From the IMG/VR virus record IMGVR_UViG_3300017989_000071, positions 1-64,000 of that record: DNA of 64,000 bases, one strand, 5' to 3'. A program made the position numbers and the translations under genes. The stretch's first letter is position 1; each line of letters begins with the position of its first letter. The notes under the pieces were generated by a model. The model was given only the letters and a program-made list of their open reading frames with translations. It was not told where the DNA came from and ran no database searches. Shown one piece after another: positions 24,060-36,617 of this stretch. This DNA is from a virus.

Positions 24060-24419
24060 TCACGCCTCCCACATCGACGGATGGCAATCACGGACCGAGT
24101 GGAACCATGCTTCAATCGCGGCGAGCCACAGGTCGGGATCGTGCTCGCTCCAAATCTCGATTCGTCCCCTGCGATAGTCCACCTTTCCCCCCGGATGATA
24201 CACGTCCCCCACGATTGAGGAATTGCCATCGTCCGTCGCGAAGAACCCACCCTGTTCGGGGGGCACCTGTAGGGAGAGCGAGCCGGGCCGAATCTCACCC
24301 CCCACCTCGGCAATCAGATAGCGCAACTCCGGTCTCCCTAGAATCCCATCCACCTTACCCTTCTCGACAAGCCGAACGCCGCACCACCCCCGCAGATAAT
24401 TTCTCGTTGTTCGGTCCAT
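24060..24419 (-). CDS. Stand-alone copy of a virion PGS...DDG...GxVDY module
   Basis: EIRPGSLSL...TDDGNSSI...GGKVDYRRGRIEI parallels the module in 5471-6142 and 6376-6996. Confidence 0.55.
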   Translation of the reverse strand: MDRTTRNYLRGWCGVRLVEKGKVDGILGRPELRYLIAEVGGEIRPGSLSLQVPPEQGGFFATDDGNSSIVGDVYHPGGKVDYRRGRIEIWSEHDPDLWLAAIEAWFHSVRDCHPSMWEA

Positions 24420-25102: not shown

Positions 25103-25573
25103 CTATCGAAGCCCGTCGAGATTCAGCTGCATGTTCCCGATCAGATAAGCCATCCGCGTATCGCGCAAGCTCCGAGCATACGCGATCACCGCCTTCCGGG
25201 TCTCCGACATCACCCGTGACCGCAGCAAAAGCTCGACGTTACACGGATCGATCCACGGCGTCGCGAAGACGTGCTCCCCCTTCGCCAGATAGCTCTCCTC
25301 CGAGGGGCATCCGACATTGCGGTCCCCCCACCACCGCAGCGTCACGATCCCATCGTCGTCGTACTCCACCCGAGCTGTGATCCGGCACAGCTCCCAAAAC
25401 TCGGCATCCCGCAGATCGTCGCCTCGCATCTTCGCCGCCGTGTCCCACGTCCGGGGTCTCATATTCCCACCGTTGATGCTGTCCATCGTCGTGTCGAGGA
25501 AAACCCGCATCCGCCCCCACCACTCGCTCACCGGCTCAGCGTAAACCCGCCGAATCATCCGCTCACCCTTCAT
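25103..25573 (-). CDS. Hypothetical protein (C-terminus weakly neck-protein-like)
   Basis: Overlap-coupled ORF; ends YARSLRDTRMAYLIGNMQLNLDGLR. Confidence 0.6.
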   Translation of the reverse strand: MKGERMIRRVYAEPVSEWWGRMRVFLDTTMDSINGGNMRPRTWDTAAKMRGDDLRDAEFWELCRITARVEYDDDGIVTLRWWGDRNVGCPSEESYLAKGEHVFATPWIDPCNVELLLRSRVMSETRKAVIAYARSLRDTRMAYLIGNMQLNLDGLR

Positions 25574-25971
25574 CCCTCTTCATCCTCCTTGACAGGAACC
25601 GCCTCAATCGAGAACGATTCGAGCTCCAGATCGGTCACCACCCCGCCCTCGACCGTACCGCTCCCAATGGTATAGCCCCGCGCCCCGAGACGACCCTCCT
25701 GTATCGCGGCGAAGAGCTCCTTCAATTCCCTGCTCTTCGGCGTGTCGGGCAGCAACTCCAGATCGACCTCGATCACCCCCTCCTTGAAATCGGCGCGGGT
25801 AACGAGATGCGTCACGTCCTGAAGATTCCCCAGCATCTCACGATTCCTGATCCGCTCCTGAAACTTCGGGTCGTTGACGGCCTTCTCCAGCACCTCGGGG
25901 GGATACACCCTCCCATTGCGCCTTCCCATCTCATCCGCCGGAATCGTCACCGCGATCTTGCGCTTATCCAC
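25570..25971 (-). CDS. Degenerate T4 gp21-like prohead protease lacking catalytic His and Ser
   Basis: RNGRVYPPEVLEKAVND matches gp21 RNKRLYPKRILEKAVKD; GELNHP becomes GNLQD; VSSRG becomes ARGYT; GTG start at 25971. Confidence 0.75.
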   Translation of the reverse strand: MDKRKIAVTIPADEMGRRNGRVYPPEVLEKAVNDPKFQERIRNREMLGNLQDVTHLVTRADFKEGVIEVDLELLPDTPKSRELKELFAAIQEGRLGARGYTIGSGTVEGGVVTDLELESFSIEAVPVKEDEEG

Positions 25972-26179
25972 CTTCCCGCTCCTGCGCATGAAAATGCTTG
26001 TACTCCTCCCAATCCCGAAAGAGCTGGTTGAACGCCCCCTCGCTGATCTCGTGCCGTTGCCCGTAGATGTGGACATGGAACGCCCGCTCCTCCATCTCCA
26101 AAAACTGAACGTCCTCGATGGCGATATAGAAGCACCCCGGCGTGCGCGGCTTATCGACTCGCAATACACCTATGGCCAT
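25964..26179 (-). CDS. Hypothetical protein, 71 aa
   Basis: GGAGG RBS; overlap-coupled. Confidence 0.6.
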   Translation of the reverse strand: MAIGVLRVDKPRTPGCFYIAIEDVQFLEMEERAFHVHIYGQRHEISEGAFNQLFRDWEEYKHFHAQEREGG

Positions 26180-26529
26180 CACATACCTCCTGTCTTCGCA
26201 TCGAGGGTATCGCAAGCGGTCTCCAGCTCCCGATCCTCGTCGTCTCCGGGTTGCGAAGAGACCCGCATGTTCCACTTCCCAACCGCCGTAACCACCAGCT
26301 CGGACAACACCTGAAGGAGGCGCATCTGGTAATCCGAGGGGTTAGGCAGCGCGGGAGCCACGACCTGCAAATCGCACTTCGGGCACACCACCGAGCCAAC
26401 GAACTCCATCCCCGCTCCATTGCTCCTCCACCCGGAGCGGATTTCGGGTCCCGCGCCGCAGCACGGGCAGGGAGCCGCCGACACCCTCAGCTGGAACTTA
26501 CTGACCGGAAACGTCAAATCTCCTAGCAT
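26179..26529 (-). CDS. Lar-like zinc-ribbon protein
   Basis: APCPCCG...VVCPKC spacing resembles the Lar restriction-alleviation family. Confidence 0.55.
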   Translation of the reverse strand: MLGDLTFPVSKFQLRVSAAPCPCCGAGPEIRSGWRSNGAGMEFVGSVVCPKCDLQVVAPALPNPSDYQMRLLQVLSELVVTAVGKWNMRVSSQPGDDEDRELETACDTLDAKTGGM

Positions 26530-26822
26530 CCCGTTACCTCCTTCGGTTTGGATTCTATTTCGGAAGTCTCGATCACGATGTAATGCACCGTGTCGCCCGA
26601 CCCCACCTCCTCGCCCATCCGATGATGAACGCGAATCCGGGCATCGCACTTCGGGCACTCCCACATCTCGAACAGGTACGCCTGCCTGCTCCGCAACGTT
26701 CCGAGAAACAGCTCCTCGAAGGTCTTCGCAAGCCGACCCGATCCGCACTCCGGGCACATCCCGGTCCGGTTCATCCACCGCTCGTAACGGTCTCGGGCCT
26801 GATCGCCGTCAAGGAGCCGCAT
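26523..26822 (-). CDS. Zinc-ribbon protein (YgiT/MqsA-N-like spacing)
   Basis: MCPECGSG...WECPKC. Confidence 0.55.
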   Translation of the reverse strand: MRLLDGDQARDRYERWMNRTGMCPECGSGRLAKTFEELFLGTLRSRQAYLFEMWECPKCDARIRVHHRMGEEVGSGDTVHYIVIETSEIESKPKEVTGC

Positions 26823-27219: not shown

Positions 27220-27419
27220 CCTCGTCTTCCTTCCCCGGTCGGGAACCCGGCCTGTTCCCACAGCTCCTCGACCAGATAATTATCGCCGGTCAGCTGGCCG
27301 ACGGAATACTCGAATCCTTTATCCTCCACCGACAAGACCTGAGCCTGCAACCGCGCCGACTCCAGCGAGGACGCCCACGCCGCGATCTGATCCCCCCGAA
27401 TGACGAAATACCGATTCAC
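27216..27419 (-). CDS. Hypothetical protein, 67 aa
   Basis: GTG start overlapping the upstream stop (GTGA). Confidence 0.55.
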   Translation of the reverse strand: MNRYFVIRGDQIAAWASSLESARLQAQVLSVEDKGFEYSVGQLTGDNYLVEELWEQAGFPTGEGRRG

Positions 27420-28192
27420 TCGGGTTCCCTCCCTCGCACCGTTTCCAATACCAGCCGCTCGGCCCATGACTCGACATCCTTCGGAGCCATCGGCGTAGCC
27501 TGCTTCATCTTCGCCGCCAGATTCACGGCGAGCTCGCGCAACTTCTCCATCCCCGGAGACGGACGAAGCAGCATTTTTCCCCCCGCATGGTAAGCAGGAG
27601 TAAACTCGTTCGTCCGCCCACACAACGGACACTCGCTGTGAACAGTCATCAGCTCCGAGCGCGGCCCAAGGTCTTCGGCGACCAACGGGAACCCACATTC
27701 CCAGCACGAAAAATGATGAACCCGTAGCACCCGATCCGCAACCAACTGCATCGTCCTCATTCGAGGTTGAAACTGGTCGGTAAGACCGCATGGAAACGCA
27801 CCGAGAAACAGGTAACCCCGCAACACCTCGGAACCGAGAACGAGCACGTTCCGCTTGTAGCTCGCCGCCGTGCCGGTCACCTGATCGAACCAGAAACCCA
27901 GCCACTCGGCAACCTGAGTGTCGTCGCACGGAACCGAGAAATCCAACCGGGCCGCCTCGCGATCCTCCCAAACCGGGAACCCGTTAGGATCGGGAACCAG
28001 CACTTTCACATACTTCGGGGGAATACCGAGCAAACGGCGAAACACCCCTCTCGGAGAGGGCTGCATCTCGTACCGAAACCGCTCCCCGTAATGATTCGGC
28101 AGACGATACCCGCCGCGCTGGACGAGAAACCTCCCCAACGCCCTCGGCGTATCGCCGTAGACCACAACCTCGCACAACCTGTCCTCGCTCAT
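27416..28192 (-). CDS. Protein with tail-tube (gp19-like) segment and C-terminal Zn ribbon
   Basis: QVAEW...QVTG...YKRNV...FLGAFP...QLVADR echoes the gp19 tube C-terminal half; CWEC/CPLC follows. Confidence 0.5.
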   Translation of the reverse strand: MSEDRLCEVVVYGDTPRALGRFLVQRGGYRLPNHYGERFRYEMQPSPRGVFRRLLGIPPKYVKVLVPDPNGFPVWEDREAARLDFSVPCDDTQVAEWLGFWFDQVTGTAASYKRNVLVLGSEVLRGYLFLGAFPCGLTDQFQPRMRTMQLVADRVLRVHHFSCWECGFPLVAEDLGPRSELMTVHSECPLCGRTNEFTPAYHAGGKMLLRPSPGMEKLRELAVNLAAKMKQATPMAPKDVESWAERLVLETVRGREPE

Positions 28193-28620
28193 TGCAACTC
28201 CTCCTGCGCTGGCGCAGATTTACCGTTTTCGTTCTTACCGTTCCTCTTCCCGTGCCCCCGCCTCTTCCACAACCCCTCGGCCATCGCGTGAAGCAGGTTA
28301 CCGTTCCCCTTCAGCCATTCGAGGTTCGAGAGGCGAGTGTTGTCCTTGTTCCCGTCCTTGTGGTTGACGACGATATACTGATCGGGGTGATCGAGCTCCG
28401 GGGCGGGAAGGAACGTCTCGGCAACCAGCACATGACATCCCACCTTGCGCTCCCTCCCGCTGTCCCGGAGTGTCCAGTAGGGGTATCCGTTCCCCGACTT
28501 CCATCGTTTGAGCTCCTTGATCTTCCCGTTCTTGTACTGCTTCCACAGATGCCCGTGATCGCTCACGTAGTACCTCGGCCAGTCCTTCACCGACCGGAAG
28601 GTCACCGTCAGATCACTCAT
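28189..28620 (-). CDS. NUMOD4-HNH homing endonuclease (free-standing)
   Basis: YYVSDHG, GYPYWTL, HVLVAETF and VNHKDGNKDNTRLSNLEW. Confidence 0.9.
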   Translation of the reverse strand: MSDLTVTFRSVKDWPRYYVSDHGHLWKQYKNGKIKELKRWKSGNGYPYWTLRDSGRERKVGCHVLVAETFLPAPELDHPDQYIVVNHKDGNKDNTRLSNLEWLKGNGNLLHAMAEGLWKRRGHGKRNGKNENGKSAPAQEELQ

Positions 28621-28864
28621 CGTTCACCATCCTGAGCAACACATCCCCATGACAGGGCTTCGGAGCGCACCAGCAACCCAACACCTTCCCCCGCAACTCC
28701 GAGAGCGAAGCCATCAACTCGGGCTGGGTCTTGACCCACTCTTCATACTTCTCGATCACCTCCCGGCGGGTACCGTCCTTGCCAATCTCGAAGGGATTCC
28801 CCCACTTCGAGGAGCGACCAATGTAAACGTCGTAATCGTCTCGTTTGCAATGAACAACGCGCAT
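28613..28864 (-). CDS. DUF4326 family protein
   Basis: VYIGR-x-SKWGNPF, LRGKVLGCWCAPKPCHGDVL. Confidence 0.9.
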   Translation of the reverse strand: MRVVHCKRDDYDVYIGRSSKWGNPFEIGKDGTRREVIEKYEEWVKTQPELMASLSELRGKVLGCWCAPKPCHGDVLLRMVNDE

Positions 28865-28869
28865 CCCGA

Positions 28870-29139
28870 TCACCCCTTCAAAAACCACCAGAACCGTTGT
28901 CTCGCCTCAGCAACGTGGGCCTTCCACCGCGCAATCACATCCGCGTTCTCCCCATCGCACTTCTCGCAAACCGTCACGTTTACCGTATCACCACTGTACA
29001 CCCACCTCCATTGATCCCCCGGCTGAAAACGATGTCCGCACAGCATACAGCGAAACCGCTCCCCGTTCGGAGCACCACCCCACGAGAGGGTACATTCCTC
29101 GGCAGTCGCAATCCGTGGCTTCTGATCGGTGAAACTCAT
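28870..29139 (-). CDS. Small zinc-binding protein
   Basis: FRCMLCG...VCEKC. Confidence 0.65.
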   Translation of the reverse strand: MSFTDQKPRIATAEECTLSWGGAPNGERFRCMLCGHRFQPGDQWRWVYSGDTVNVTVCEKCDGENADVIARWKAHVAEARQRFWWFLKG

Positions 29140-29462
29140 AATGGCTCCCTCGACGGATTGACCAACGACTCCGACCCGTCCAACTCCCGCGCCCGCCCGT
29201 TCTTAATCGCCGTCAATGCCGCCTCGGCGACCTTCGACCTGTCCTCAAGGATTTCGCCGTTCTCTCCTCCCCCGCAGCATTTGAATACCTGAACCAGCAC
29301 CACCTCCTCGGGCAACCCGGCAGGGAGATCGTCGCCCTTGAACTCCTCCTCCATATCCGAGCAATCACCGTACCCCTCATGCCAATCGTCGTGGCAGCTG
29401 GAGCAACACCTCCAGCCCCACTTCTCGAAATCACTGCAATAGAGGCGGACATACTTGCTCAA
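29136..29462 (-). CDS. Cys-containing hypothetical protein
   Basis: TTG start overlapping the upstream TGA; CCSSCH...KCC. Confidence 0.55.
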   Translation of the reverse strand: MSKYVRLYCSDFEKWGWRCCSSCHDDWHEGYGDCSDMEEEFKGDDLPAGLPEEVVLVQVFKCCGGGENGEILEDRSKVAEAALTAIKNGRARELDGSESLVNPSREPL

Positions 29463-29728
29463 GTTATATCCTCCGGGCCGTCGCGTTTGGCTTCCTTCTC
29501 CCACACCATCAGGAGGAACGCACCCATCCGGCGAACCTCTTCGAGGGTCTGAACCTCCAATGCCAACGACTCCCCCTGAAAGAAGGCGAAGTGATCCCCT
29601 GCCGGATTGCACTCTGCCGACAGGGAATCGTCCTTGGTCTTGTAGAACATCGCCATCGGAGCCTCTTCGATCTCCTCACGCTCGAAGGAAATCGGCTCCG
29701 GTTCGGGTGTCTTCTTCTTCGCCGTCAT
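29459..29728 (-). CDS. Hypothetical protein
   Basis: Packed ORF with phage-like codon pattern. Confidence 0.65.
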   Translation of the reverse strand: MTAKKKTPEPEPISFEREEIEEAPMAMFYKTKDDSLSAECNPAGDHFAFFQGESLALEVQTLEEVRRMGAFLLMVWEKEAKRDGPEDIT

Positions 29729-29732
29729 CGGA

Positions 29733-30116
29733 CTACTCGTCGTCCTTACACGCCGCCATGTTCCGCTCGACCGCCGAAATCGCCGCGACGCCGATGCGGG
29801 TCTGCGCCTCTTCCCGCGCCAACTGCCCTTCGAGGGCGGCGCGGGCGATCAGGACCACGTAGTTATCGGTGGACACCTCGGCCAGCGAACGGAGATCGTC
29901 TTCCGACCACAGCCGGAAAGGCACGTGCTCCACGGCCCACCCCACCGCGTTCCGCCGTTCCTCGAAGAGAGCCTTCAGGGAAACGAACCGGTGGATCGTC
30001 GCCACCTCCGAGCACCCCCGAGACGCCCCGCACTCGGAAGCGATCTTCTTGATGCGGCGGTGCCACTCCATATCATCGGCGTGAAACGCCCAATCGTGAT
30101 TCTGCTCTTCGTTCAT
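29733..30116 (-). CDS. Hypothetical helical protein
   Basis: AAGGAG RBS. Confidence 0.65.
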   Translation of the reverse strand: MNEEQNHDWAFHADDMEWHRRIKKIASECGASRGCSEVATIHRFVSLKALFEERRNAVGWAVEHVPFRLWSEDDLRSLAEVSTDNYVVLIARAALEGQLAREEAQTRIGVAAISAVERNMAACKDDE

Positions 30117-30119
30117 TCG

Positions 30120-31343
30120 TTACTCCTTTTCATAATCCAGATTCGTAACCGTAATCGGAAACGGCCCCTCGACAACCGAAGGCCGTGGCCGACGATCCAG
30201 CCTCGTAACTTTTCGATTCCGCTTCCCGTAAACAAACTCGGTGAAATAGATACTACCGGGAACGATCTGCCTCATCGGTTGAACACTGACCAGCTCCCGC
30301 GCACGTAGATCAGGTAACGCCGCCCGAACCAGTGAAAACGCCAAACGGCGAAACGTACCCCGGTCAAAAACCGGAGAATCGAGACTCGTTACCGGCGACA
30401 CCCTGATCCCCACCTCCTCGTAGAACTCCGCATTCTGAGGGGTGATCGAGAAGTCCATCGAAATCGACTCCGGCACGATCCTCGGCGCGACATCCACCTT
30501 GATCCGCTTCGGATAATTCTCGATGTCCACCTCACGGACATGCACACCGGGGCGAGACGGCCTCGGCGACCCCGAAAACACGTTGTCGTAAAACGCCTGC
30601 AACCGCGCCCGCGCCGTCTCGTTATCCGTTTCGTCGAAAATCAAATGATCGTTGGCATTCTTCACCACACCTTTAGCATGATGAAGTAACCGGCGGACGT
30701 TCACTCGATCAAGGGTCGTCACGGGGCTAGAATCAAACCGCGTAACAGGCCGCACAATCCGGTCTCTCCGAACACCCAGCTGCGGAATGTCCGCCTCGTC
30801 CAGTATCGCCGACGACGCCTGAAAGAAACGCGGCTCGACCGTCTTCACCCCATACCACTCGGCGAACGACCACATCTTCCGCGCCTGACGCTGAGCACCC
30901 GGCGACAGGCCGCTCCGCTGATCCAGACACGTCGGAAACCCCCGGCGGTGGGGACGCCCCGGAACGCCGAACTCCTCGATGAGCTCCCGCTCGCTTCCGA
31001 TGAACTTCGGGGGTCGGAACACCGGCACGTAAGGGGCCACGAAGTACCCCGGATCGCGAGAAGCCTCTTTCCGAAAGTCAAACTTCGTAACCGGTCGGCA
31101 CTGAATCCCCAGCCGCAAGCTCTCGGACAGCGCAGCGGGAAGACCATCAAAACTCGCCTCGATGTCCTCAGCCGACTCTACGGTCCACTCCGCTCGCAGT
31201 CGATTCTTGTGAATCTGCGACTGGATCGCCCGAGAAATTCCGATGCCCTTGTAGACCGGCTCCGACCGAACCTCGATCAGCTCCGTCGCATCGCCGGAGA
31301 TATTGACCTCGCCGGTATCGAGGTTGACGTAGGCTTCGCTCAC
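30120..31343 (-). CDS. Chimeric protein built from major-capsid (gp23-like) and tail-sheath (gp18-like) fragments
   Basis: RLRAEWTVESAEDI, GYFVAPYVP and LVRAALPDLRARELVSVQPM...GSIYF (MCP motifs) flank LDRVNVRRL...IFDETD...PESISMDFSIT (sheath C-terminus). Confidence 0.75.
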   Translation of the reverse strand: MSEAYVNLDTGEVNISGDATELIEVRSEPVYKGIGISRAIQSQIHKNRLRAEWTVESAEDIEASFDGLPAALSESLRLGIQCRPVTKFDFRKEASRDPGYFVAPYVPVFRPPKFIGSERELIEEFGVPGRPHRRGFPTCLDQRSGLSPGAQRQARKMWSFAEWYGVKTVEPRFFQASSAILDEADIPQLGVRRDRIVRPVTRFDSSPVTTLDRVNVRRLLHHAKGVVKNANDHLIFDETDNETARARLQAFYDNVFSGSPRPSRPGVHVREVDIENYPKRIKVDVAPRIVPESISMDFSITPQNAEFYEEVGIRVSPVTSLDSPVFDRGTFRRLAFSLVRAALPDLRARELVSVQPMRQIVPGSIYFTEFVYGKRNRKVTRLDRRPRPSVVEGPFPITVTNLDYEKE

Positions 31344-31681
31344 CACACCCTCCTTCGCTTTTCGACATAATCGCCGTCGCATAAACGAAATTCTTTATTC
31401 CATTTCCAGCCGCGACGCTGTTTACCGATCCGAAAAAATCGAATACGACCGAGCACTTCGCCATCTTCCCAATAATCGGTAGCCAAGTAATACCCGATCT
31501 TCGATAGCCACGGATTCACCATAAGCTTGATGAGCGAACGATGCGCGACGATCTTGCCCGTCCGGTCCCGAACCACCCCGAGCGTATGCACATGGGACCA
31601 CCCGCCTGTATAGCGATACATCGCCACCGCGACAACGGCGAAGAACCCCAACGCCGCAATATCACGCCAACTACTCGCCAT
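31340..31681 (-). CDS. Membrane-anchored hypothetical protein
   Basis: N-terminal TM IAALGFFAVVAVAMY; GGAGGA RBS. Confidence 0.6.
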   Translation of the reverse strand: MASSWRDIAALGFFAVVAVAMYRYTGGWSHVHTLGVVRDRTGKIVAHRSLIKLMVNPWLSKIGYYLATDYWEDGEVLGRIRFFRIGKQRRGWKWNKEFRLCDGDYVEKRRRVW

Positions 31682-31779
31682 CGTTCTTCCTCCTATCCTT
31701 CTTCGGCTTCTTGCACTTACCGGCGGTCTCCGCACCCTGCATCTGAGAGACGCCGCGAACGGTAAATATCGGAAGCGGC

Positions 31780-32004
31780 CTATACACCGCCCGCACGTCC
31801 TTCTTCCTTCCCATCAGACTCTCCTTTTAATTTTCGGTCGATCTTCCACTTGATCGGCAGGGTAGCCAGCCAAACCGCCTTGTACCAGAGCCAGCGACCG
31901 ACCCACGCCGTGCGAGCCATCCCGTAGCGATCCTCGATGTGGAGCATCTTCCGGTTCCACCACACCTGAAACAGCATAAATGCTGTATTAAACTTTTTCC
32001 TCAT
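31780..32004 (-). CDS. Small Trp-rich protein
   Basis: Overlap-coupled ORF. Confidence 0.55.
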   Translation of the reverse strand: MRKKFNTAFMLFQVWWNRKMLHIEDRYGMARTAWVGRWLWYKAVWLATLPIKWKIDRKLKGESDGKEEGRAGGV

Positions 32005-32578
32005 CTTCCTGCTCCAGCCCCGCCTTGCGCTTCATCCGTCCAAGCTGAGCATTAAGCACAGCCCCCGAGCTTCGGATCGACTCAATCGTTGGGGACGGCG
32101 GACCGCCACTCTTCGCCAGCTTCGCCATCGCCACAGCCCACGCCTCGTGCAGCTCGGGGGAGACCCCGAAGCGACCCGAGGCGATCCGAATGATGAAAAA
32201 GTGCGCGAGCTCGTGGTACACGTAATCGTCCGACAGGTCGCAGAGATAGATTCTGATCGGCCCATCGCTGCTCGGGACCGTCATGCCGTACATGTCGTAG
32301 TGCCCGAGCGGGTTACCGAAATTCAGATTCAGCCAACCCCGACCGACGAGGTTGATCTCGACCCCTTCGTACTTGACCATCGTATGACCGTAGGCTGCCA
32401 TCCGGGTTGCGTGGATGAACCGCTCGAAGAGGATGTCGAGACGTTTGATGTACTTCTCCTTCATCCCCTGCGGGTACTTCACGGTGAAATAACGGGTCTT
32501 CATCGTCTCGGTCACCTCGCCGTTCGGAACCGCCCGCTCGATGCCGAAGACCTCCTTGAACCATTCCCAAACCCTCAT
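31988..32578 (-). CDS. Zincin-like metallopeptidase
   Basis: YVYHELAHFF plus downstream HEAWA. Confidence 0.65.
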   Translation of the reverse strand: MRVWEWFKEVFGIERAVPNGEVTETMKTRYFTVKYPQGMKEKYIKRLDILFERFIHATRMAAYGHTMVKYEGVEINLVGRGWLNLNFGNPLGHYDMYGMTVPSSDGPIRIYLCDLSDDYVYHELAHFFIIRIASGRFGVSPELHEAWAVAMAKLAKSGGPPSPTIESIRSSGAVLNAQLGRMKRKAGLEQEDEEKV

Positions 32579-35894: not shown

Positions 35895-36554
35895 CTATCC
35901 GTATGCGTAGCCATCGATTTTAATGTGGACCAGCGGAATGTGGTGAAGCCGGTGATCGTCGATCTTGAAAATTCGCCCACAAGGTTCGATGCTCCCCGTC
36001 GGAAGACCCGACAGCAGCGAATCGTTCACCGGCCAGACCTCGCAACCGATGCACCCCTGATGAAGCTCCCCAAGTCCGGGAAGCAAGGGGAACGGCCCGA
36101 AGACGCCGACACAACGAACCCCCAGCGGAGATTGGTGGTCTTCCGTGGGGTCCGAATTGTGTATCGCGATCCCGGCAAACGTGGTATGCTCCACACCGCG
36201 CCAGTAAGGCACATACGCCCCGGTCCCGATATAGCGACCGACGAGGTTCCCCTGAAAAATCTGAACACCCTCGCGGACGTAACCCGAGGAGTGCGACCCC
36301 GCTTCCCACTTCCGCTCCTGACCGGCCTTCGCCGGTTCGGGCATGAACACCGCATCGGGGTCCATCGGCCCGTTGACCAGCTCCGTTTCGAGTAGACATC
36401 GGTTGGAAGGAATCGGGAGGCGTTCGTGATTGTTGCCCTGTATCGTATGTATCGTACCGCACTTGAACTGGCGACCGAACAGGCGCGAGGCCACCGCCAC
36501 TCCCGCACCGCACAGCGGGCATCGCTCGGAAGGTTGATCGTCGAAAGGATTCAT
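35895..36554 (-). CDS. Cys-module fused to a head cement/decoration-like (Mu gp35/DUF2190-like) domain
   Basis: VQIFQGNLV...GAYVP...FAGIA...VRCVGVF...IGCEVWPVND...CGRIFKID...VHIKI; first gene after a sigma70 promoter. Confidence 0.5.
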   Translation of the reverse strand: MNPFDDQPSERCPLCGAGVAVASRLFGRQFKCGTIHTIQGNNHERLPIPSNRCLLETELVNGPMDPDAVFMPEPAKAGQERKWEAGSHSSGYVREGVQIFQGNLVGRYIGTGAYVPYWRGVEHTTFAGIAIHNSDPTEDHQSPLGVRCVGVFGPFPLLPGLGELHQGCIGCEVWPVNDSLLSGLPTGSIEPCGRIFKIDDHRLHHIPLVHIKIDGYAYG

Positions 36555-36589: not shown

Positions 36590-36617
36590 ATTATACACCG
36601 ATTCAAGTACGTGTCAA
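36590..36617 (-). promoter_or_regulatory. sigma70-type promoter
   Basis: TTGACA (36617-36612), 16-nt spacer, TATAAT (36595-36590). Confidence 0.85.

Follow-up and report, generated by a model that had tools for sequence, protein, structure and literature searches.

Why would a phage keep, far from its structural genes, an open reading frame (ORF) that joins motifs of its capsid protein to the C-terminal block of its contractile sheath, and what could the product of such a frame do? The locus lies in the first 64 kb (hereafter the window) of a 117,644-bp IMG/VR virus record with an estimated completeness of 91%. Beyond the window, and likewise on the minus strand, lie the genes for a major capsid protein (MCP) of T4 type with 480 aa (115486-116928; Pfam Gp23, E 1e-58) and for a contractile sheath of 506 aa (108888-110408). 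This MCP is at most 35% identical to the MCP of any cultured phage, and we therefore regard the phage as a distant, uncultured myovirus of the gp23 type. The true MCP gene, at 115.5-116.9 kb, adjoins a scaffold-like gene and is far from the frame at 30 kb, which we call the mosaic ORF. The public runs listed for this locus are sediment and seawater metagenomes, with no RNA run among them.

An earlier reading of the letters alone (the sequence-only reading) had proposed an intact frame of 407 codons behind a strong ribosome-binding site (RBS), and this proposal is borne out (table 1). The frame is open over 30120-31382, and an ATG at 31382 would give a product of 420 aa but has no RBS. We favor the GTG at 31343 as the start because AAGGAGG lies 5 nt upstream of it, because it shares bases with the stop codon TGA (31342-31340) of the preceding gene in a GTGA coupling, and because public gene calls give the 407-aa form. 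The downstream gene begins 3 nt past the stop. Codon usage is native to the phage, with a log-likelihood of +0.38 bits/codon in frame compared with -0.52 to -0.58 in the other two frames (+0.52 +/- 0.15 bits/codon in the phage's long genes, which served for training), and the linkers of the mosaic ORF are also coding-like by this measure. An assembly chimera, the artifact against which the sequence-only reading had cautioned, is excluded by contigs from four runs in four studies, assembled per run, each of which bridges 29400-32100 without a break and with 0 differences. About 10 recorded contigs of up to 129 kb (NCBI, ENA, Logan, and JGI) carry exactly this protein. Since 29400-32100 is invariant across metagenomes of sediment from 2018 and of seawater from 2021, we seem to be dealing with a clonal phage population, unless the samples are connected.

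Table 1. Features of the mosaic ORF and its probable promoter. Q, residue number in the 407-aa form; i-E, independent E value against the clade-specific HMM.
Feature	Position	Strand	Protein residues or sequence	Details
Mosaic ORF	30120..31343	(-)	407 aa	GTG start; stop TAA 30120-30122
Translation start region	31340..31355	(-)		AAGGAGG 31355-31349, 5-nt spacer, GTG 31343-31341; read from sequence
MCP piece 1	31155..31211	(-)	Q45-63, HKNRLRAEWTVESAEDIEA	Similar to own MCP 253-271; HMM i-E 3.4e-4
Linker	31059..31154	(-)	Q64-95, 32 residues	In place of MCP 272-422 (remainder of the spine helix, then the A domain)
MCP piece 2	30999..31058	(-)	Q96-115, RDPGYFVAPYVPVFRPPKFI	Similar to own MCP 423-442; HMM i-E 4.9e-4
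MCP piece 3 (weak)	30804..30908	(-)	Q146-180, including WYGVKTVEPRFF	Similar to own MCP 443-474; HMM i-E 0.27
Sheath C-terminal block	30411..30722	(-)	Q208-311, TLDRVNVRRLL...DFSITPQNAEFYEE	Similar to own sheath 390-503 of 506
MCP piece 4	30123..30371	(-)	Q325-407, ...FRRLAFSLVRAALPDLRARELVSVQPM...GSIYFTEFVYG...VVEGPFPITVTNLDYEKE	Similar to own MCP 76-148; HMM i-E 1.5e-16
Promoter (probable)	36590..36617	(-)	TTGACA, 16 nt, TATAAT	Sigma-70 type; 12/12; ~5.3 kb upstream of the mosaic ORF

The mosaic ORF is a genuine coding gene, peculiar to this phage lineage and built from parts of two virion proteins. When it was compared by BLASTP with the genome's 140 ORFs, only the MCP and the sheath of the phage itself matched significantly: residues 342-420 align with MCP 82-148 (39% identity, E 5.6e-8) and residues 222-322 with sheath 394-501 (30% identity, E 3.2e-7), the BLASTP hits being given in the numbering of the 420-aa form. 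Segment-wise profile comparison, a check suggested with the sequence-only reading, agrees, as hhalign aligned Q325-384 with positions 76-134 of the MCP family (96.7%, E 4e-10) and Q208-311 with positions 390-500 of the sheath family (96.5%, E 8e-10). The four motifs originally pointed out are all present at their positions in one open frame, and the description of the ORF as a chimera of the most conserved MCP motifs with a sheath C-terminal block is upheld by BLASTP, HMM, and hhalign alike. In a genome-wide scan, no other ORF matched both the clade-specific MCP HMM and the clade-specific sheath HMM.

Along the ORF, the order of segments is MCP 253-271, the 32-aa linker, MCP 423-474, sheath 390-503, and MCP 76-148; on the clade-specific MCP HMM (458 positions) the capsid matches fall successively at 240-258, 406-425, weakly at 436-450, and then at 67-122. 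Pfam Gp23 is matched over positions 3-44 of 376 (E 1.4e-5; 25.2 bits against a cut-off of 24.4 bits). The two short pieces near the N-terminus stand out in ungapped windows of 16 residues, KNRLRAEWTVESAEDI scoring 52 against MCP 254-269 and DPGYFVAPYVPVFRPP scoring 54 against MCP 424-439, compared with a maximum of 43 in 2000 shuffles (mean 26.5, sd 3.5) and a best score of 36 in any other ORF of the genome. Mapped to T4 gp23 through a profile-to-PDB alignment, piece 1 probably corresponds to about residues 262-281, comprising the strand before the spine helix and the start of that helix, and piece 2 probably to the P-domain strands at about 444-461. Piece 3 keeps to the MCP order of pieces 1 and 2 and is no more than a suggestive match to the MCP C-terminal end (local score 40, shuffle P 0.024). 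Piece 4 corresponds to about T4 gp23 87-143, the most conserved ("Gol") region, and stops where the I-domain linker begins. The linker between pieces 1 and 2 has no detectable MCP similarity (P 0.52), and nothing in the mosaic ORF matches the A-domain span of the MCP. Resemblance of the ORF's N-terminus to the MCP I domain (P 0.05-0.2) and of Q64-95 and Q312-326 to the MCP was not significant, and these candidates were dropped.

The native MCP order (N-arm, linker/E-loop, P, A, P) is not kept in the mosaic ORF, where the N-proximal MCP element sits at the C-terminus. In T4 gp23, residues 66-105 form the N-terminal region and residues 132-160 the first I-domain linker (PMC9546572). The mosaic ORF ends at MCP 148, where the stretch aligned with T4 I-domain linker 1 begins, and so stops short of the I domain. 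Going by the alignment and by what is generally known of the fold, we take the first MCP piece to be a segment that follows the I domain. Judged by these alignments, the capsid part is a single circular permutation of a T4-type (HK97-fold) MCP, stripped of its A and I domains. What seems to be kept is the set of conserved P-domain strands, together with the N-arm's end and the stem of the linker equivalent to the E-loop, and the new chain ends fall where the I domain had been inserted. The old MCP termini are bridged by ~150 residues, including the last ~110 residues of the sheath. The pieces had been called scrambled, and this part of the sequence-only reading does not stand, as they are collinear within one circular permutation and the deletions from the MCP are located near domain boundaries. 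Going by what is generally known of HK97-fold proteins, the three MCP elements still present would form one P-domain sheet. The accompanying claim that the pieces are too short to fold as a capsid does hold, the ORF being too incomplete to build a capsid or a sheath; as far as sequence tells, the mosaic protein cannot form a capsomer.

The sheath block matches the clade-specific sheath HMM (full E 7e-11) at positions 388-422 and 460-495 only, and the sheath N-terminal and middle domains are absent from the mosaic ORF by both HMM and hhalign. All 120 of the 120 sheaths tested match the block about equally, at ~30% identity, and the phage's own sheath is not the closest. Pfam PF17482 reports nothing on the block up to the requested E of 10, HMMER filters dropping most matches above ~0.1, and a protein atlas gave weak sheath-family leads for the mosaic ORF (score about 0.90). 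The MCP-derived N-half reaches residue 474 of 480 and the sheath block residue 503 of 506, so that both end near the native C-termini of their parents. AlphaFold2 gave a pLDDT of 32 for the mosaic ORF as a single sequence and of 59.6 for the sheath block with a 50-row alignment. A Foldseek comparison of the predicted block with the PDB returned nothing at E <= 0.001, and phmmer of the mosaic ORF against PDB sequences returned nothing. Independent folding is not known for the ~110 C-terminal residues of a sheath or for MCP pieces such as these.

The mosaic ORF is an orphan in the public data searched. It had no tblastn match in 50,697 phage records, and its 85-aa C-terminal piece searched alone matched annotated MCPs only. 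A word-indexed search of 5.8 billion proteins returned the ORF itself and nothing else, whether the query was the whole protein or the sheath block, and an exhaustive HMMER scan of 1.84 billion cluster representatives returned the ORF together with MCPs that matched through the N-proximal motif, none of them similar along the whole ORF. Scans of IMG/VR with the mosaic ORF, a neighboring gene, and the MCP found no relatives. An alignment of sheaths recovered ten fragmentary related contigs with sheaths 53-58% identical, all of them fragments of structural modules only, and in the five that were searched the ORF matches just the MCP and sheath genes. The search for similar chimeras in relatives, which had been put forward with the sequence-only reading, therefore found none among these fragments. 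PADLOC gave no hit for the mosaic ORF at E <= 0.01 with a library of 2023 that may lack Tab and Tai, and NCBIfam gave one far sub-threshold match (acylphosphatase, 17 bits against a 119-bit cut-off). No description of genes mimicking capsid or sheath fragments was found in the literature searched.

Two comparisons bear on the age of the pieces and on what has kept them. Foreign MCPs match piece 4 as well as the phage's own MCP does, and since the sheath block is likewise no closer to the phage's own sheath, the pieces are not recent copies; they are either old or fast-evolving. The mosaic ORF retains 19 of the 26 columns that are invariant in MCPs (73%) against 11 of 43 variable columns, and 14 of the 20 sheath columns conserved at >=90% (70%) against 9 of 39 variable ones. 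Together with a frame open over 407 codons, this retention argues for purifying selection on those residues that are also constrained in the parents, and it bears a signature of selection, in keeping with the original description of the ORF as a selected patchwork.

The mosaic ORF belongs to a same-strand run of small genes, most without an assigned family. The consensus sigma-70-type site upstream of it is probably the early promoter of the operon holding the mosaic ORF, and no strong terminator-like site was found between the two. This accessory operon would be early and driven by the host polymerase, a timing that we infer from the match to the promoter consensus alone. The product of the coupled upstream gene (31340-31735, minus strand) is small, has a single hydrophobic stretch resembling a membrane anchor (...IAALGFFAVVAVAMY...), and matches no family. 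Some 1.5 kb downstream of the mosaic ORF, an ORF for a homing-type endonuclease (HNH_3; 28189-28620, minus strand) and the end of a DUF4326 gene (28613-28888, minus strand; E 5e-32) share 8 nt. A weak match to Lar-like restriction alleviation proteins (26179-26778, minus strand; phrog_599, E 3.9e-4) hints at a region with host-takeover or anti-defense genes. Tube-likeness of 27416-28192 and cement-likeness of 35895-36554 were not significant and were dropped.

Two further ORFs of this region resemble head proteins over short stretches. Residues ~76-116 of a 199-aa ORF (25570-26169, minus strand) match prohead protease profiles (phrog_31489, E 6e-6; Pfam Peptidase_S77, 54-91 of 198 positions at a sub-threshold E of 1.5e-4). 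This is a real but tiny fragment and the sole S77-like match in the record, and the true prohead protease may be located in the missing ~9% of the genome. In a 119-aa ORF (24060-24419, minus strand), residues 42-89 are significantly similar to the I-domain part of the MCP profile (E 1.2e-4) through a motif, DDGNSSIVGD...VDYRRG, similar to MCP 188-213. The same profile region is matched more weakly by ORFs of 769 and 1452 aa (93706-96015 and 86841-91199), so the 119-aa ORF may carry a shared small module, not a capsid fragment.

The reading that we tentatively favor is that segments of structural genes were duplicated, truncated, and fused into this gene, which then diverged to about 30-40% identity, and that it would be transcribed early from the host-type promoter alongside the other small accessory genes. 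Its product, soluble and unable to assemble, would imitate surfaces that are conserved on free capsid and sheath subunits, and would occupy whatever normally recognizes such surfaces. The likeliest candidate for this target is a host sensor of virion proteins, bacterial immunity reportedly being triggered directly by capsid proteins; another would be a host factor such as EF-Tu, the binder of the equivalent Gol region in T4 gp23. We prefer this reading because the gene is probably early, because its protein seemingly cannot assemble, and because selection appears to have acted on exactly the invariant surfaces. Taken as a whole, this reading is a serious possibility that falls short of being probable. 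A point against it is that a trigger epitope carried by the mimic could activate the sensor instead of blocking it. The broader proposition, that T4-type phages encode early "virion-mimic" mosaics of invariant capsid and sheath cores that neutralize immune sensors or EF-Tu-like factors, with the mosaic ORF as a lineage-specific, circularly permuted example of a wider counter-defense class, is more doubtful, and no description of such a gene class was found in the literature searched.

We rank the mimic first among the readings and an assembly modulator next, followed by functionless debris and a minor virion protein. Sheath C-terminal elements mediate subunit contacts in the parent sheath, and a modulator or poison could bind the MCP or sheath of its own phage or of a competitor through the retained P-domain and sheath "handshake" elements, so as to time, chaperone, or block head or tail assembly, for example excluding co-infecting related phages. 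The retained MCP pieces include elements that serve subunit contacts in the parent (PMC9546572), and assembly blockers encoded by phages or satellites are known, namely Tab (PMC10884400) and Tai (PMC11364771). The position of the gene, which is remote from the structural module and probably belongs to an early operon, and the absence of similarity to any PADLOC model speak against a modulator; moreover, foreign proteins resemble the motifs at least as closely as those of the phage itself, which a poison would thus also hit, and we consider this role quite unlikely. An evolutionary leftover, that is, an in-frame fusion of duplicated structural-module remnants that is functionless and stays open only through the tightly coupled operon, would be in keeping with an orphan among 1.84 billion cluster representatives that yielded no confident fold, and MCP and sheath segments running almost to their native C-termini are what gene-end to gene-interior deletions would give. 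Such debris is nevertheless unlikely, given that 407 codons remain open despite deep divergence (30-40% identity to any parent), that codon use is native even in the linkers, and that identity is concentrated on family-invariant residues (73% and 70% compared with about 25% at variable columns), which neutral decay would not yield.

MCP paralogs with structural roles exist (T4 gp24), and the mosaic protein carries capsid-contact elements through which, by its P-domain-like part, it might dock as a minor component of the virion or prohead, whether decorating, vertex-associated, or internal. That role is improbable for a gene outside the late structural module whose product is without the A domain that a place in a capsomer requires and which has no homologs in the structural regions of related phages (five fragmentary contigs searched). 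The sequence-only reading had also raised roles at the DNA level, as a recombination donor or a spacer-matching decoy, and the latter would act on CRISPR spacers aimed at capsid and sheath genes. Short DNA matches to the MCP and sheath genes do occur at the motif cores, but the longest are of 24-38 nt at 79-92% identity, too short and imperfect in our judgment for a donor or a spacer-matching decoy. With the locus unbroken and identical in four independent assemblies, we attach hardly any weight to a DNA-level role or to a chimeric assembly.

Many bacterial defenses are triggered by conserved phage structural proteins, which are hard for phages to mutate. If the mimic reading is true, an expendable gene of its own, displaying nothing but these invariant surfaces, would be a new answer to such sensors or to competitors' assembly, and it would show new phage genes arising by the permuting and fusing of core-gene pieces. 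Function aside, the mosaic ORF is a clear example from nature of an HK97-type capsid protein that has been circularly permuted, stripped of domains, and fused to a sheath module, known so far from a single orphan sequence in an uncultured phage.

Among known systems, Tab and Tai are accessory proteins of mobile elements aimed at virion assembly, the same logic as in the assembly-modulator reading. They are encoded by prophages and satellites, their abstracts do not describe them as built from fragments of their target proteins, and no sequence relation to the mosaic ORF was found; the mosaic ORF, in contrast, is encoded by a phage in which no integrase was noticed in the parts examined. With the C-terminal domain of contractile sheaths (PF17482; T4 gp18 type) the mosaic ORF shares the LDRVNVRR helix and the terminal strands, including 14/20 conserved residues, and it is without the N-terminal and middle domains of contractile sheaths (PF04984/PF22671/PF17482). 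Because the sheath block is internal in the ORF, the sheath C-terminal arm is not a free end there. Proteins that consist of a single "handshake" domain are represented by gp25/TssE.

Another close relation is to the T4-type gp23/gp24 family (gp24 being the vertex paralog; PF07068, HK97 fold; PDB 6UZC, 7VS5, 5VF3, and 1YUE), with which the mosaic ORF shares 19/26 invariant residues and the motifs ...LVRa.P.L.A.ELVSVQPM..., KLRA.W.vE, GY..APYVP, and probably RYG.K....FY. It differs from this family in representing about 150 of about 480 residues, in lacking the A and I domains and the propeptide, in being circularly permuted with a sheath segment inserted, and in the location of its gene outside the structural module. 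In the Gol/EF-Tu/Lit exclusion system, Lit comes from prophage e14, and Gol, which we take to be gp23 residues 93-122, binds domains II and III of EF-Tu. Within the first quarter of gp23, conservation is highest in Gol, which is described as binding EF-Tu and as the trigger of the Lit protease (PMC3014915). Profile positions 77-112 align to T4 gp23 97-132 and the ORF piece covers positions 67-122, so that it matches Gol by position; in T4 gp23 this stretch belongs to a late capsid protein, whereas in the mosaic ORF its counterpart is part of a separate, probably early protein.
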